From an uncultured Bacilli bacterium (lineage in GTDB: Bacteria; Bacillota_I; Bacilli_A; RF39; UBA660): a stretch of DNA of 64,000 nucleotides. The notes under the pieces are model-generated. The model had not been told where the DNA came from and ran no database searches. It saw nothing but the letters and a program-made list of their open reading frames with translations. Of the stretch, positions 40,573 to 46,030 are shown piece after piece (positions within the stretch are counted from its first letter, which is position 1; each line of letters starts with the position of its first letter). The position numbers were made by a program, and so were the translations under genes. The stretch is from positions 510,603 to 574,602 of the forward strand of contig CAKPMX010000001.1 of NCBI GenBank assembly GCA_934168205.1, written 5' to 3'.

Positions 40573-40687
40573 TCAAATAAACATCAAACTACAAAAAACA
40601 CCCCAATAAAGCTAATTATCTATTGTAAAAAACTTGAATTCAAGCTATAATTAGCATAGAGTATAAAGAATAAGAGGGTGATTTCTA

Positions 40688-43600
40688 GTGATAGTTCGAC
40701 TAATCAAAAAGACTAAAATATACAACTTTACACTACCAACTAAAATAGCCGGAAACTATTGGATAACTGATAATGATTATTTAGGAAACACTAGAAATCT
40801 AATCAATGTAGAAGAATTTGAAGGCCATTGGAAAATCAAAAGTGACTTTGAAACAAAAATTATGTTAGGCGAGAACGAAATAGAATCAGCTATATTGAAT
40901 GAATATAGTCTTTTCTTCTTGAAAATAAATACTGATAATGAATATGTTATATTATATTGTTCTCCATCAATTGAACCAAATATAAATCGTCTTCATTTAA
41001 GAGGAGACTGTGAACTAATCATTGGTAATGATCCACAGTCAACAATTTGTTACAACTACCCGTTAGTATCAAGACAACAAACTAGGTTAATATACAATAA
41101 AGGTGGCTGGGTAGTTCAAGACTTAAATAGTAAATATGGTACATATGCCAATAATGAAGCTGTAACTTCAAAAACATTAGAATATGGTGATATTGTTTTT
41201 ATCATGGGTCTTAAAATAGTTGTCTTAAAAGACTCAATAATTATTAACAGAATAAGTAATTTAGTAAATTATGATCAAAGAGTTTTAGAACCAGATCACC
41301 CTTGGGTACAAAATCAAACTGAAATGGATAATCCAGATGAGGAAAATGTTGAGTTCTACAAAGAAGACGATTACTTTTATCGCGCCCCAAGATTTAAAAC
41401 AAAAATAGAGCCTATAAATGTTAGCATCGATACACCACCTGGAAAAACAGAAGAAGATAAAACACCTTTAATATATACCGTTGGTCCAATGCTTACAATG
41501 TCATTAATGACCGCAACTACTGGTGTAACAGCTCTTCAAGGAATAATAAATGGAACACAAGATTTTGAAGCAGCTGCACCAGCACTTTTAACTACTGGTA
41601 TTTCATTATCTACCATGATTTTATGGCCATCACTAACTAAGAAATATCAAAAGAAACAGAACATAAAAAAAGAAGAGATGCGTCAACAAATGTATGCTGA
41701 ATATATTGCGTCAAAAAGAGCAGAAATTCAAGAAGCAATGAAAACTCAACGTCAAATATTAGTTGATAATTATCTTCCAATTCAAGAAACGAAAGAAATT
41801 ATATATAATAAGAAAAGAAATCTTTGGGAAAGAGAAATAGATCAGGCAGACTTTCTAGACTTAAGATTAGGAATTGGTTCGACTGAATTAGCCGGAACTA
41901 TAAACTTTCCACAAGAACACTTCTCAATAGATTCTGATAACCTTCTTCAAGAAGTATACAAATTAGGTGCAGAGTCTAGAATGCTAGAAAATGTTCCGAT
42001 ATCAATTTCATTTGTAGAAAAGAACATTTCAGCTATCATTGGTACAGCTGAAAACAAACAACAATTCATAGAAGGCCTAATTCTTCAAATGATTACATAT
42101 CACAGTTATGAAGATTTAAAAATAGTTTTACTAACAAACGAAAAAAATGCTAGCAAATGGGAGTATTTAAAAGTATGTCCACACTGTTGGAGTAATGACA
42201 GAACAACAAGATATTTTGCTACAAGTATAGATGAGGCAAAAGAAATATCATTAGCTTTAGAACAAGAATTACAATCTAGAAAATACAAAGATGTTTCTGA
42301 AGGACGAGAATTAAATAACGTTGACTACAAAAAATATAAACCTTACTATATGATAATAACAGATGACTTTAAATCGGTTCGTGATGTAGAACTTGTAAAA
42401 GATGTTTCAGAATTAGAATTAAATGTTGGCTTTAGTTTACTAGTTATAAGTCCAAGATTAGTTAACTTACCAAATGAATGTAAAACTTTCATAAGCATTG
42501 GTGATAAAAAGTCAGGAGTATTTGAAAATGAATTAGTATCAAATAAACAAAAAGAGTTTGTTGCAGATGTTGATCCTACTTTAAATATGTATGAATGTTG
42601 TAAAATTCTAGCAAACATTCCAATAGATATTGCTAAGGAAAATCAAGTCCTTCCAATGAGTTTAACCTTCCTAGAAATGTATAATGTCGGAATGATTGAA
42701 CAATTAAATATTCTAAATCGTTGGAAATCAAATGACCCAACAAAAACACTTCAAACACCAGTTGGTGTAGATAAAACAGGTGAACTATTTAAATTGGATT
42801 TACATGAAAAAGCTCATGGACCACATGGCCTAATCGCTGGTATGACTGGTTCTGGTAAATCAGAATTTATAATTACCTATATCTTATCCATGGCAATAAA
42901 CTATCACCCTTACGAAGTATCATTTGTACTTATCGATTACAAAGGTGGAGGTTTAGCTGGAGTCTTCCAAAATAAAGAAACGGGTATGAAGTTGCCACAT
43001 TTAGCTGGTACTATAACAAACTTAGATACCGTTGAAATGAATCGTTCCCTAGCTTCAATTCAAAGTGAACTTCGTAAAAGACAAAGAATGTTCAATGAAG
43101 CAAGAGATAAATTAGATGAAAGTACCATAGATATTTATAAATATCAAGCCTTATACAGAAAAGGTTTAGTGGATAGACCTATATCACATTTATTCATCAT
43201 TTCTGATGAGTTTGCTGAATTAAAAGACCAAAGGCCAGAATTTATGGACCAATTAATATCAACAGCACGTATCGGTCGTTCTTTAGGTGTCCATCTTATT
43301 CTAGCAACACAAAAACCTGCCGGGGTAGTTAATGATCAAATCTGGTCAAACTCTAAATTCCGTGTCTGCTTAAAAGTACAAGACAAATCAGACAGTATGG
43401 ATATGATTAAATGTCCAGATGCTGCTTCATTAAAAAATGCCGGACGTTTCTTCTTACAAGTTGGTTATAATGAATTATTTGCTCAAGGACAAGCTGCTTG
43501 GGCAGGAGCACAATATTATCCAGCTGAAAAAAGAAAGAAAAAAGTAGATCAAAGTATTAACTTCATTGATAATACTGGTAACAGTATAAAGAGTTTAGAT

Positions 43601-45262
43601 AATAAACAAAATGAAGTTCAAGTAACATCAAAAGGTGAAGAAATAACAAATATCATCAAATATATAATTGAAGAAGCAAAGCAAACATCTGTAAGTATTC
43701 CACAACTATGGCTAGATAGAATTCCAAATTATATCTACGTTGAGGACTTAAAAGCTAAATATAACTATCAAACAAAGAAGAACAATATCAATCCGATCAT
43801 TGGTGAATATGATGATCCAGATAACCAAAGACAAAATGTTTTAACACTACCTTTATCATCTGGTGGCAATTCTATAATCTATGGTTCAACAGGTTCAGGT
43901 AAAGAACTAATGTTATCGACAATTATATATTCAACTATAACTACACATGATTCATCAGAAGTTAATTTCTATTTACTAGATTTTGGTGCAGAAACACTAG
44001 CAATGTTTAAAAATGCTCCACACATTGGTGAAGTATTACTATCTGGAGAAAATGAAAAAATTGCAAACTTATTCAAATTAATTACTCAAGTAATGGATGA
44101 AAGAAAGAAAATATTTGTCGACTACAATGGTTCATTTGATTTTTATATAAACCATGGTGGAAAACAAATGCCATTAATTGTTGTTGCAATAAACAATGTC
44201 GAAGGCTTCCTTGAATTATATCCTGACTATGAAGATGTTTTAGGACAAATAACAAGAGAATGTTTAAAATATGGTATTGTCTTTATTCTAACAACGAATG
44301 GTCCTAATACTATTAGATATCGTCTACGTCAAAACTTTGCACAAAATATTGTTTTACAATTTAACGATCCTTCTGATTATGCTAGCGTTCTCGCTGGAGT
44401 ACGTAAAAAAGAACCATCAAAAGGATTTGGTAGAGGACTAGTAGACCTAGATGGCATTTTCGAATTCCAAACCGCATACTCATTCAAAGAAGAAAAGATG
44501 ACTGATTATATCAGAGTTATTTGTAATAAATTAAATAAAATATGCGAATATAAAGCTAAGAAAATACCTGTATTGCCAGAAACAGTTACTCAAGAATACT
44601 TATTACCATCATTACGTGGCTTATTATCAATTCCAGTTGGTGTACAAAAGGAAACTCTAGAAATCGCAAGTATCAGTTTGAAGAATGGTATTTACGTAAT
44701 TACTGGCGAAGATATAACTTCTATACAACCATTCTTAACAGGACTATCTAGAATGCTTTTAAAAATACCAAGCAGCAAGTGTATTATGTTAGATGCTCTT
44801 AGTATATTGTCAGATAATCCACCAAAAAATGTTACGTATGACAAAGGCAACTGTACGGCAGGCATTGAAGAGGTAACGACAGCTCTATATACTAAACAGG
44901 TTGAAAATACAGAAGACCCTGTAATTTGTATAATTACCGGTATAAGTACTCTTCTATCAAAACTAGATGCAGTTAAAAAAGGTGAGTTTACAACTAACAT
45001 AAATGAAGCTATAAAACTAGGAACAATCAAATTTATCTTTGTAGAGAGAATAGATAATATCAAGTCTCTTAATTATGAAGCTTGGTTCAAAGCAAATGTT
45101 GACTTATCTGAAGGAATCTGGATAGGAAATGGAATCAGTAATCAATTCACTCTAAAAGTAACTACAAATTCTCGTTTACTAAGAGTGGAATTAGAGCCAA
45201 ACTTTGGATATGTAGTAACAAAAGGAAAAGCTGCTGTTACTAAGTTCCTTTCAGACGAGTAG
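40688..45262 (+). CDS. essC: type VIIb secretion system ATPase EssC/YukBA (copy 2)
   Basis: 1524 aa from GTG 40688 (RBS AGAGGG). Same architecture as copy 1: D1 Walker A GLIAGMTGSGKSEF, D2 GSTGSGKE, degenerate D3. About 75 percent identical to copy 1 across the TM-DUF-D1 region (e.g. the identical HLAGTITNLDT, LFIISDEFAELK and ATQKP-GVVNDQIWSNSKF blocks), but the C-terminal third is divergent. Confidence 0.85.
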   Translation: MIVRLIKKTKIYNFTLPTKIAGNYWITDNDYLGNTRNLINVEEFEGHWKIKSDFETKIMLGENEIESAILNEYSLFFLKINTDNEYVILYCSPSIEPNINRLHLRGDCELIIGNDPQSTICYNYPLVSRQQTRLIYNKGGWVVQDLNSKYGTYANNEAVTSKTLEYGDIVFIMGLKIVVLKDSIIINRISNLVNYDQRVLEPDHPWVQNQTEMDNPDEENVEFYKEDDYFYRAPRFKTKIEPINVSIDTPPGKTEEDKTPLIYTVGPMLTMSLMTATTGVTALQGIINGTQDFEAAAPALLTTGISLSTMILWPSLTKKYQKKQNIKKEEMRQQMYAEYIASKRAEIQEAMKTQRQILVDNYLPIQETKEIIYNKKRNLWEREIDQADFLDLRLGIGSTELAGTINFPQEHFSIDSDNLLQEVYKLGAESRMLENVPISISFVEKNISAIIGTAENKQQFIEGLILQMITYHSYEDLKIVLLTNEKNASKWEYLKVCPHCWSNDRTTRYFATSIDEAKEISLALEQELQSRKYKDVSEGRELNNVDYKKYKPYYMIITDDFKSVRDVELVKDVSELELNVGFSLLVISPRLVNLPNECKTFISIGDKKSGVFENELVSNKQKEFVADVDPTLNMYECCKILANIPIDIAKENQVLPMSLTFLEMYNVGMIEQLNILNRWKSNDPTKTLQTPVGVDKTGELFKLDLHEKAHGPHGLIAGMTGSGKSEFIITYILSMAINYHPYEVSFVLIDYKGGGLAGVFQNKETGMKLPHLAGTITNLDTVEMNRSLASIQSELRKRQRMFNEARDKLDESTIDIYKYQALYRKGLVDRPISHLFIISDEFAELKDQRPEFMDQLISTARIGRSLGVHLILATQKPAGVVNDQIWSNSKFRVCLKVQDKSDSMDMIKCPDAASLKNAGRFFLQVGYNELFAQGQAAWAGAQYYPAEKRKKKVDQSINFIDNTGNSIKSLDNKQNEVQVTSKGEEITNIIKYIIEEAKQTSVSIPQLWLDRIPNYIYVEDLKAKYNYQTKKNNINPIIGEYDDPDNQRQNVLTLPLSSGGNSIIYGSTGSGKELMLSTIIYSTITTHDSSEVNFYLLDFGAETLAMFKNAPHIGEVLLSGENEKIANLFKLITQVMDERKKIFVDYNGSFDFYINHGGKQMPLIVVAINNVEGFLELYPDYEDVLGQITRECLKYGIVFILTTNGPNTIRYRLRQNFAQNIVLQFNDPSDYASVLAGVRKKEPSKGFGRGLVDLDGIFEFQTAYSFKEEKMTDYIRVICNKLNKICEYKAKKIPVLPETVTQEYLLPSLRGLLSIPVGVQKETLEIASISLKNGIYVITGEDITSIQPFLTGLSRMLLKIPSSKCIMLDALSILSDNPPKNVTYDKGNCTAGIEEVTTALYTKQVENTEDPVICIITGISTLLSKLDAVKKGEFTTNINEAIKLGTIKFIFVERIDNIKSLNYEAWFKANVDLSEGIWIGNGISNQFTLKVTTNSRLLRVELEPNFGYVVTKGKAAVTKFLSDE

Positions 45263-45947: not shown

Positions 45948-45978
45948 GAACTTTCAAATTACGAAAGTTCTTTTCTTT
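45947..45978 (+). terminator. intrinsic terminator of the second essC operon
   Basis: AGAACTTTC-aaattac-GAAAGTTCT followed by TTT. Confidence 0.6.
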
Positions 45979-46030
45979 AACTTATATATCTTATTAATCG
46001 TTTAAAATTAATCCACCATATCCAAACTAT

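Follow-up and report, generated by a model that had tools for sequence, protein, structure and literature searches.

A window of 64,000 nucleotides (nt) from the genome of an uncultured Bacilli bacterium (contig CAKPMX010000001.1) was analyzed, with the focus on four genes, essC2, yukD2, s67 and s70 (locus 2), that are related to genes of type VII secretion systems (T7SS). All four open reading frames (ORFs) are on the plus strand. The first, essC2 (40688-45262), starts with GTG, is free of frameshifts and encodes a T7SS membrane ATPase (EssC/TsxC) of 1524 amino acids (aa). It is followed after 9 nt by yukD2 (45272-45529), encoding a predicted ubiquitin-like EsaB/YukD/TsxB protein of 85 aa, and after another 9 nt by s67 (45539-45742), which encodes a putative shortened WXG100-like helical hairpin of 67 aa (TsxA1-like). 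The last gene, s70 (45735-45947), specifies a second small helical protein of 70 aa, a putative TsxA2-like partner. Its start lies inside the stop region of s67, the two ORFs overlapping by 8 nt, and s67 and s70 are probably translationally coupled via this overlap. A purine-rich Shine-Dalgarno site precedes each of the four ORFs. An earlier note on this DNA, made from the sequence alone, had described the same four ORFs, the last two as tiny, overlapping and helical, followed by a terminator of their own, and had pointed out that this essC copy has no frameshift. All four ORFs were found where it had placed them, and essC2 is intact and full-length, not a pseudogene; essC2-yukD2-s67-s70 is a genuine, strongly conserved four-gene operon.

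The region's top-scoring sigma-70-type promoter, TTGTAA-17 nt-TATAAT (40623-40651, plus strand, 10 of 12 matches), lies inside the 115-nt gap between the upstream amidase gene and essC2. In all 31 orthologous upstream regions compared, TTGTAA-17-TATAAT is found 60-75 nt 5' of the start codon (as TTGTCA in locus L015), and the TTGT and TATAAT columns of their alignment are invariant. The Shine-Dalgarno sequence of essC2, GAGGGTGA, and the GTG start were read from the sequence at 40675-40690 (plus strand); a purine-rich, GG-containing motif, mostly GGGGTGA, stands upstream of essC2 in 31/31 orthologues, and 24 of these 31 start with GTG. At the other end of the operon, the terminator proposed earlier was located as a terminator-like hairpin on both strands (45946-45972), with a stem of 10-11 bp and a T-rich tail on each strand, which divides the operon from a convergent spoIID-like gene. 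G+C content and base composition of the operon equal those of its surroundings. A perfect 12-bp palindrome, CTTGAATTCAAG, occupies 40633-40644 within the promoter spacer. Considered as an operator, it was rejected, as it is not kept in orthologues, the more distant of which have an A-rich spacer; the element is lineage-specific.

EssC2 is a T7SS-type ATPase with one intact catalytic domain

EssC2 passes TIGR03928, the NCBI equivalog model of Firmicutes EssC, at 996 bits (cutoff 778), in agreement with the earlier description of a second full-length EssC, and its Pfam matches are FHA and FtsK_SpoIIIE. The closest solved structure is that of Bacillus subtilis YukB (9qks, E=4e-119), which aligns over residues 196-996; the FHA region of EssC2 does not align to that of YukB. 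Conservation along the protein was calculated from 78 sequences, comprising the window protein and 77 orthologues. The first 100 residues (FHA1) have a mean column conservation of 0.84, second to the ATPase domain D1. A second FHA domain covers aa 101-190 (40988-41257, plus strand; Pfam FHA aa 111-170, E=7.6e-11). The canonical FHA motif carries GR and NG, which serve in phosphothreonine binding. In the EssC2 consensus GN replaces GR and YG replaces NG, the phosphothreonine-binding residues thus being degenerate. Those of the EssC proteins of T7SSb are likewise degenerate (PMC11217815). The membrane anchor (aa 256-320, 41453-41647, plus strand) appears to consist of about two moderately hydrophobic helices with a conserved consensus; their segments fall under a strict Kyte-Doolittle cutoff, and a two-helix topology is proposed by likeness to EssC/YukB.

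Among the three ATPase-like domains, only D1 (aa 651-945, 42638-43522, plus strand) has intact catalytic motifs. The Walker A and B motifs of D1, GMTGSGKS and (L/F)FIISDEFAE, reach 90% conservation or more at nearly all positions. The mean column conservation of this domain, 0.92, is the highest in EssC2, and it is 76% identical to the corresponding domain of EssC1, the paralogue encoded in the same window. Domain D2 (aa 1006-1290, 43703-44557, plus strand) retains a P-loop, GSTGSGKE (GxxGSGKE), and has INNVE at the hhhhDE position, Asn-Asn standing in place of the acidic Walker B residues, as in D2 of EssC1. Domain D3 (aa 1291-1524, 44558-45259, plus strand) lacks a P-loop and Walker A, is the least conserved part of EssC2 (mean column conservation 0.57) and shares 29% identity with D3 of EssC1. 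This degeneracy of D2 and D3 matches the pattern described for EssC. By analogy with the EccC/EssC literature, D3 is a candidate substrate receptor. Conservation is lowest in D3, s67 and s70, YukD2 lying above both small proteins, which fits a receptor and substrate that change together.

FtsK/SpoIIIE translocases have a single motor domain and a C-terminal DNA-binding gamma domain. The FtsK model NF007615 reaches 53.8 bits on EssC2 (cutoff 1566), in D1 only, and EssC2 has three tandem ATPase-like domains instead. The DNA-translocation-like apparatus suggested in the earlier note is not sustained: EssC2 is an EssC equivalog with a three-ATPase-domain layout and YukB as its closest solved relative.

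YukD2 is predicted to be a YukD-type ubiquitin-like protein

YukD2 has no direct match above threshold in Pfam or NCBIfam, its sequence falling below the Pfam YukD cutoff, and a profile of its orthologues gave chance-level matches only against PDB sequences. An hhalign comparison of this profile with a sequence of Staphylococcus aureus EsaB was not significant and is not used as evidence. Hence, the YukD nature of the protein was shown via structure and intermediate homologues. An AlphaFold2 model built on database homologues (mean predicted local distance difference test score, pLDDT, 89) displays a beta-grasp topology. A Foldseek search of the PDB with this model retrieved ubiquitin-like folds; among the top 50 matches listed, the highest TM-score was that of B. 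subtilis YukD (2bps, 0.73/0.76, root-mean-square deviation 2.5 Å), and the ubiquitin-like N-terminal domain of mycobacterial EccD was also matched. A profile search of 1.84 billion representative proteins yielded 775 clusters, and 18 of 50 more distant family members match Pfam YukD (PF08817, best E=4e-6). Identity among YukD2 orthologues is 50-100%, mostly 64-80%, making it the best conserved of the three small genes, and its ratio of nonsynonymous to synonymous substitution rates (dN/dS) is 0.05. The C-terminus reads RIILV and has no Gly-Gly. Judged by its modelled fold and by intermediate sequences, rather than by a direct family match, YukD2 is a YukD-type ubiquitin-like protein, as the 85-aa product had been called before.

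The s67 and s70 proteins resemble a shortened WXG100 pair

The s67 gene is at the same position in 79/79 loci compared (the window and 78 others), and s70 is kept in position and length in 77 of 78, the exception being cut by a contig end. With dN/dS values of 0.11 (s67) and 0.17 (s70), yukD2, s67 and s70 are all under purifying selection. The AlphaFold2 model of s67 (pLDDT 83) has helices at residues 3-24 and 28-51 and a disordered C-terminal tail. Trp25, at the helical turn, is kept in 68 of the 79 orthologues. The tail ends EELGND, and a looser form of this terminal motif ends 49/79 orthologues. Ten orthologues are longer than the window protein; they add only a disordered acidic or proline-rich spacer, and four of the ten keep a terminal (E)ALG(D/E).

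The s67 and s70 profiles found chance-level matches only among PDB sequences. With hhalign, s67 against s70, and each against the WXG-like proteins of the paralogous locus 1, were not significant, and the match to the WXG100 protein of locus L084 was weak (12% probability). A related locus, L087, has the same gene order: an EssC 48% identical to EssC2, a YukD-like protein of 83 aa (PF08817, E=2.8e-5), a bona fide WXG100 protein (PF06013, 40 bits, cutoff 27) and a second, sub-threshold WXG100 protein. The s67 profile aligned to the first of these small proteins with a score of 32.5, compared with a maximum of 16.0 in 150 shuffles (about 10 standard deviations above), placing its Trp on the Trp of W-T-G. 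The s70 profile aligned to the second with 23.9, the maximum of the same number of shuffles being 18.9 (about 6.6 standard deviations above). Given this match in both position and profile, s67 and s70 are read as a divergent, shortened TsxA1/TsxA2-type WXG100 pair, albeit one without a Pfam WXG100 match.

The module is ancestral and fixed in position

A scan of one genome per GTDB species recovered EssC2 orthologues in 80 loci, with identities of 56-96% across these species-representative genomes. The hosts are all metagenome-assembled genomes (MAGs) of uncultured gut Bacilli, labelled Mycoplasma sp. CAG:877, Candidatus Faecimonas, Tenericutes or Erysipelotrichaceae; the clade may belong to the order RFN20. 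In 78/78 complete orthologous loci the same four genes are present at the same site, with the same order and lengths. Such recurrence, together with dN/dS values of 0.05-0.17, is far beyond chance.

The flanks are syntenic wherever contigs reach. Upstream are rplM, rpsI, a holin-like gene, an M23-like gene, a ZIP gene and, in some loci, a gene for a CwlD-like amidase; downstream are the convergent spoIID-like gene, a PLC-like gene, an Abi_2-like gene and htrA. The earlier note had placed the operon immediately beside rplM-rpsI-cwlD. The conserved neighborhood is indeed there, but four genes separate rpsI from the amidase gene (holin-like, M23-like, one for a ZIP transporter, which is on the minus strand, and one for a protein of 252 aa without assigned function), and the amidase (39892-40572) scores 184.7 bits, below the NCBI CwlD cutoff of 221.55. 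Nor did the proposed insertion after cwlD hold, as the module occupies its fixed site in 78/78 loci, also where no CwlD-like match was found upstream. Synteny of the flanks and the conserved promoter show that locus 2 is ancestral, vertically inherited and positionally fixed in at least 78 species, and is not an insertion.

Between rpsI and the essC2 operon, at 36959-37942, lie the genes for the holin-like membrane protein (113 aa) and a protein of 213 aa that weakly matches Peptidase_M23, a pair that is kept in 30-40 related loci. Such a wall-hydrolase pair beside essC2 might aid passage of cargo across the peptidoglycan.

A paralogous locus in the same window

The window contains a second EssC gene, essC1 (547-5172, plus strand), whose product of 1541 aa from the ATG scores 946 bits with TIGR03928. 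The public gene call with the exact EssC1 product starts at this ATG (547); a start at GTG 535 was considered and dropped, as it has no matching record. It is followed by yukD1 (5162-5416, plus strand), encoding a paralogous YukD-like protein of 84 aa as called (L082), the ORF being open from 5144, and by six genes for small helical proteins of 103-152 aa (5429-7527, plus strand). Two of the latter have sub-threshold WXG100 matches, to PF06013 (E=0.0012, 6755-7054) and to TIGR03930 (E=0.0037, 5752-6066). EssC1 and EssC2 are 41% identical over their full length, with 22-24% in the FHA region, and YukD1 and YukD2 are 42% identical. The view that a pair of full-length EssC paralogues is encoded in the window, both accompanied by YukD-like and small helical proteins of their own, stands. 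EssC1-type proteins form a separate series, ranging from 99% to about 40% identity, in which EssC1, rather than EssC2, is the nearer paralogue for 117 of the 120 proteins listed.

The eight-gene block of locus 1 (essC1, yukD1 and the six small genes) recurs in L083 (10001-17032) and L088 (6001-12999). Its sites differ: in the window it is flanked by gap and pgk, in L083 it precedes a PBP5-like gene, and in L088 it is found downstream of rpoA-htpG. Unlike this cassette, locus 2 never moves. In the window the glycolytic run gap-pgk-tpi (7613-12234) is broken twice, by the essC1 cassette between gap and pgk and, between pgk and tpi, by genes for a 172-aa protein without assigned function, an LPG_synthase_TM protein and a GT4 glycosyltransferase.

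Some related essC-yukD loci add bona fide WXG100 and DUF4176 genes. An EssC1-like locus, L084, encodes at 14877-19524 a 550-aa protein with a lipoprotein-signal-like N-terminus, a bona fide WXG100 protein and a DUF4176 protein. These three are candidates for larger cargo; the two loci of the window are without comparable genes. On the opposite strand of L085 (14931-19243) lie genes for two small proteins, a DUF87 (HerA-like) ATPase, a 184-aa protein and a PP2C phosphatase, a set that is reminiscent of the T7SSf accessories TsfV and TsfF.

Other T7SS components were not found near the module

The earlier note had stated that both essC copies stand without EssA, EssB and EsaA. In agreement with this, direct scans (Pfam and NCBIfam) and precomputed Pfam annotation, which together covered part of the ORFs, revealed no EssB/YukC, EssA/YueC or EsaA/YueB among the genes of the window, and none of the three was present in the 10 kb that adjoin its left edge, upstream of essC1. 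Nine essC-yukD loci sampled from this group contain no Pfam-recognizable EssB, EssA or EsaA within about 10 kb, the related loci with Pfam-annotated genes (L083-L091) are equally without them, and none stands beside any orthologue or homologue examined. Altogether, about 84 kb of the genome of about 1.5 Mb were inspected for partners. The only conserved membrane proteins near essC2 are the holin-like protein and the ZIP transporter. No T7SSf parts (PPM phosphatase TsfF, DUF6382-FHA protein TsfJ, AAA+ ATPase TsfV) were found within 10 kb on either side or among the conserved flank genes, and the T7SSg marks, DUF5050 and Tad genes, are missing from the window.

Ten subtypes, T7SSa-j, have been defined from RefSeq genomes by Garrett, Higginson and Palmer in 2024 (PMC11217815). 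According to that survey, only three parts are near-universal, namely the ATPase, a ubiquitin-like protein and WXG100; each subtype has at least one extra component and none consists of the trio alone. The same source records genomes with two different T7SS and shows that EssA/EssB/EsaA are lacking in the variants T7SSc-j (PMC11217815), so that the word 'unusual', applied earlier to two EssC systems without these partners, was overstated. New here is the trio alone (ATPase, ubiquitin-like protein and WXG-like proteins) with no other known machine part nearby, the nine sampled loci being alike. The module looks like the barest T7SS gene set yet seen. Its clade is not mentioned in PMC11217815, and the searchable literature contained no subtype after T7SSj and nothing that ties T7SS to RFN20.

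Akin to T7SSb, the module has an ATPase that passes the EssC equivalog model, with YukB as nearest solved relative, degenerate FHA residues and one catalytic and two degenerate ATPase domains; a discrete YukD/EsaB-type protein without Gly-Gly is encoded next to essC2, followed by small helical WXG-related proteins. It differs from T7SSb in that EssB/YukC, EssA/YueC and EsaA/YueB were not found in the window or related loci, that the FHA region of EssC2 cannot be aligned to that of YukB, and that the order is essC-yukD-substrates instead of esxA-esaA-essA-esaB-essB-essC. Moreover, the two small WXG-like proteins, at 67 and 70 aa, differ from each other and have W-x-D/N for W-x-G, and LXG toxin genes are absent. 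T7SSg of Acetivibrio and Paenibacillus is the simplest published set, with non-identical WXG100 proteins A1/A2, ubiquitin-like B and ATPase C (PMC11217815). However, its TsgC is FHA-less, and it includes the DUF5050 beta-propeller TsgL and always adjoins Tad pilus genes (PMC11217815), whereas EssC2 has FHA domains and neither TsgL nor Tad genes are present here.

The T7SSf and T7SSj systems of Clostridia share with the module FHA-bearing ATPases that cluster with T7SSb EssC and a YukD-like B protein, and since two different T7SS loci can share one genome they are a precedent for two systems (PMC11217815). These parts are joined in T7SSf by a PPM phosphatase, a DUF6382-FHA protein and an AAA+ ATPase, and in T7SSj by a kinase, a phosphatase, a large Ig-like envelope protein and others (PMC11217815), none of which is in or near locus 2; in addition, the two copies of the window are true paralogues with the same minimal content. 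The mycobacterial ESX systems (T7SSa) offer a co-transcribed, non-identical hairpin pair and several paralogous systems per genome. The fold of YukD2 matches the N-terminal domain of EccD, and s67, with its flexible C-terminal tail, could offer a counterpart of the EsxB signal to which D3 of EccC binds. In contrast to ESX, EccB, EccD, EccE and MycP are absent here, EssC2 has FHA domains, the ubiquitin-like protein is free and the host is monoderm.

Proposed mechanism and alternative explanations

In our view the operon probably encodes a minimal, autonomous T7SS-type machine that is reduced to the three universal parts and exports its own WXG-like pair, and vegetative transcription is a likely part of this best explanation. 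EssC2 would be the membrane-anchored motor, presumably acting as a hexamer; it has a pair of FHA-type domains at its N-terminus, about two transmembrane helices, a region of the stalk/DUF type and three FtsK-like domains. In B. subtilis, the FHA and DUF domains of YukB clamp YukD between them; this binding does not require YukC and enables its recruitment (PMC12637312). By analogy, a non-conjugating YukD2 could sit in a corresponding clamp of EssC2, between its FHA and DUF domains, locking the N-terminal region in an assembly-competent state. The s67 and s70 proteins most likely form a four-helix-bundle heterodimer, which would be the cargo of the machine. The flexible C-terminal tail of s67 probably docks on D3 and would thereby activate EssC2, which might then export the pair by ATP hydrolysis in D1.

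Several points weigh against this reading. The organisms are known as MAGs alone and the module from its genes. The s67 and s70 proteins have no match above threshold to Pfam WXG100 (PF06013) or NCBIfam, they are about 30 residues shorter than WXG100 proteins, and in the pair D or N stands at the glycine position of W-x-G. Foldseek returned nothing significant for the s67 hairpin, EsxA structures appearing only at E of about 4-5, and the terminal motif of s67 is missing in 30/79 orthologues. To our knowledge, all T7SS characterized to date need extra membrane components, of which none is seen here, and the conserved FHA domains and YukD hint at an unseen EssB-like partner.

Precisely this last point separates two versions of the machine, since, given the YukD clamp precedent, the conserved FHA domains and YukD2 fit either a self-contained EssC-YukD unit or an unseen FHA-binding partner. 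A self-sufficient translocon, in which the twelve transmembrane helices of an EssC2 hexamer would form the channel, YukD2 would be the only assembly factor and no partner would exist genome-wide, appears rather unlikely to us. That EssC2 is half a machine, with at least one membrane partner that is shared by both EssC paralogues and specified at another place in the genome (a pseudokinase like EssB, a kinase of the T7SSc/d/e/j type or a novel protein), is a serious possibility, in line with the shared core that the earlier note had raised as one alternative, if somewhat short of an even chance. The high conservation of the FHA region (0.84 over the first 100 residues) and the retention of a private YukD speak for such a partner, as in B. 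subtilis FHA and YukD serve recruitment of YukC/EssB (PMC12637312). An extra component is found in every published subtype (PMC11217815), and the 84 kb inspected are a small part of the genome. On the other hand, known T7SS core genes normally cluster with essC, the nine sampled loci are without a Pfam-recognizable EssB/EssA/EsaA nearby (L085 having its opposite-strand DUF87 ATPase and PP2C phosphatase), and the locus-1 cassette relocates as a self-contained block.

Two further explanations would remove the module from secretion or from the ancestral gene set, and both are much less probable than a secretion machine; in general, a DNA-translocation role, a sporulation role and a recent insertion are poorly supported. 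It is improbable that the operon encodes an EssC-derived ATPase complex with a task in the cell cycle or in sporulation, for example in engulfment, in spore cortex formation or in DNA pumping. The fixed site among core genes, sporulation-type flanking genes, Spo0A in the window and strong conservation of promoter and protein in reduced genomes would suit such a task. Yet both flanking genes belong to separate transcription units, the SpoIID-like one running convergently and the amidase one being split off by the essC2 promoter, and this promoter is of the sigma-70 type, not the sporulation-sigma type. The FtsK match is confined to D1 (54 bits) in a three-domain EssC layout, the partners are YukD-like and WXG100-related, and related loci hold bona fide WXG100 and DUF4176 genes. 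Least probable of all is a recent or decaying island, inserted horizontally after cwlD or left over from a full T7SSb locus. The layout was first read as an insertion, EssA, EssB and EsaA were not found nearby, and the paralogous locus-1 cassette does shift its position between species; but locus 2 is syntenic in 78/78 complete loci with EssC2 at 56-96% identity, its G+C content is like that of the surroundings, mobility genes are absent, and the ORFs are intact everywhere, with dN/dS of 0.05-0.17 and a conserved promoter.

The identity of the T7SS membrane channel and the truly indispensable parts are open questions of the field, and the core complex of the B. subtilis T7SS has resisted capture in hexameric form. 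A pared-down module, present in at least 78 species and duplicated within one genome, would suit reconstitution and structural work as a minimal model, and it extends T7SS diversity into abundant uncultured Bacilli of the human and animal gut. Should EssC and YukD prove self-sufficient, the module would represent an eleventh, minimal T7SS subtype, duplicated into substrate-specific paralogues; should a partner be encoded elsewhere, that partner would itself be a new T7SS component common to two EssC paralogues.

Other features of the window

Scans of the 64-kb window for Rfam families (gathering score) and tRNAs gave no match. Ribosomal leader RNAs are common at ribosomal operons in Bacillota; the window is without Rfam matches although it holds the S10-spc-alpha ribosomal operons and rplM-rpsI. 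The sporulation-type genes of the window encode Spo0A (12323-13114), the CwlD-like amidase and a SpoIID/LytB-domain protein (46031-47107). Genes of this type occur in genomes publicly labelled Mycoplasma or Tenericutes, and related loci also encode YunB, GerQ, YabP and SpoVG.

The Abi_2 family is known from abortive phage infection. The Abi_2-family protein downstream of the operon (48265-49227) has 68-99% identity in 72 related loci, exceeding the conservation of EssC2 in nearly all compared; such conservation is odd for the family and suggests a housekeeping role in this clade. Toward the right end of the window (54000-64000) the G+C content falls to 23-26%. Here, a DNA methylase gene (59556-61283) overlaps a gene for a ResIII/SNF2 helicase-nuclease (61243-63930), and the pair looks like a type III restriction-modification system.

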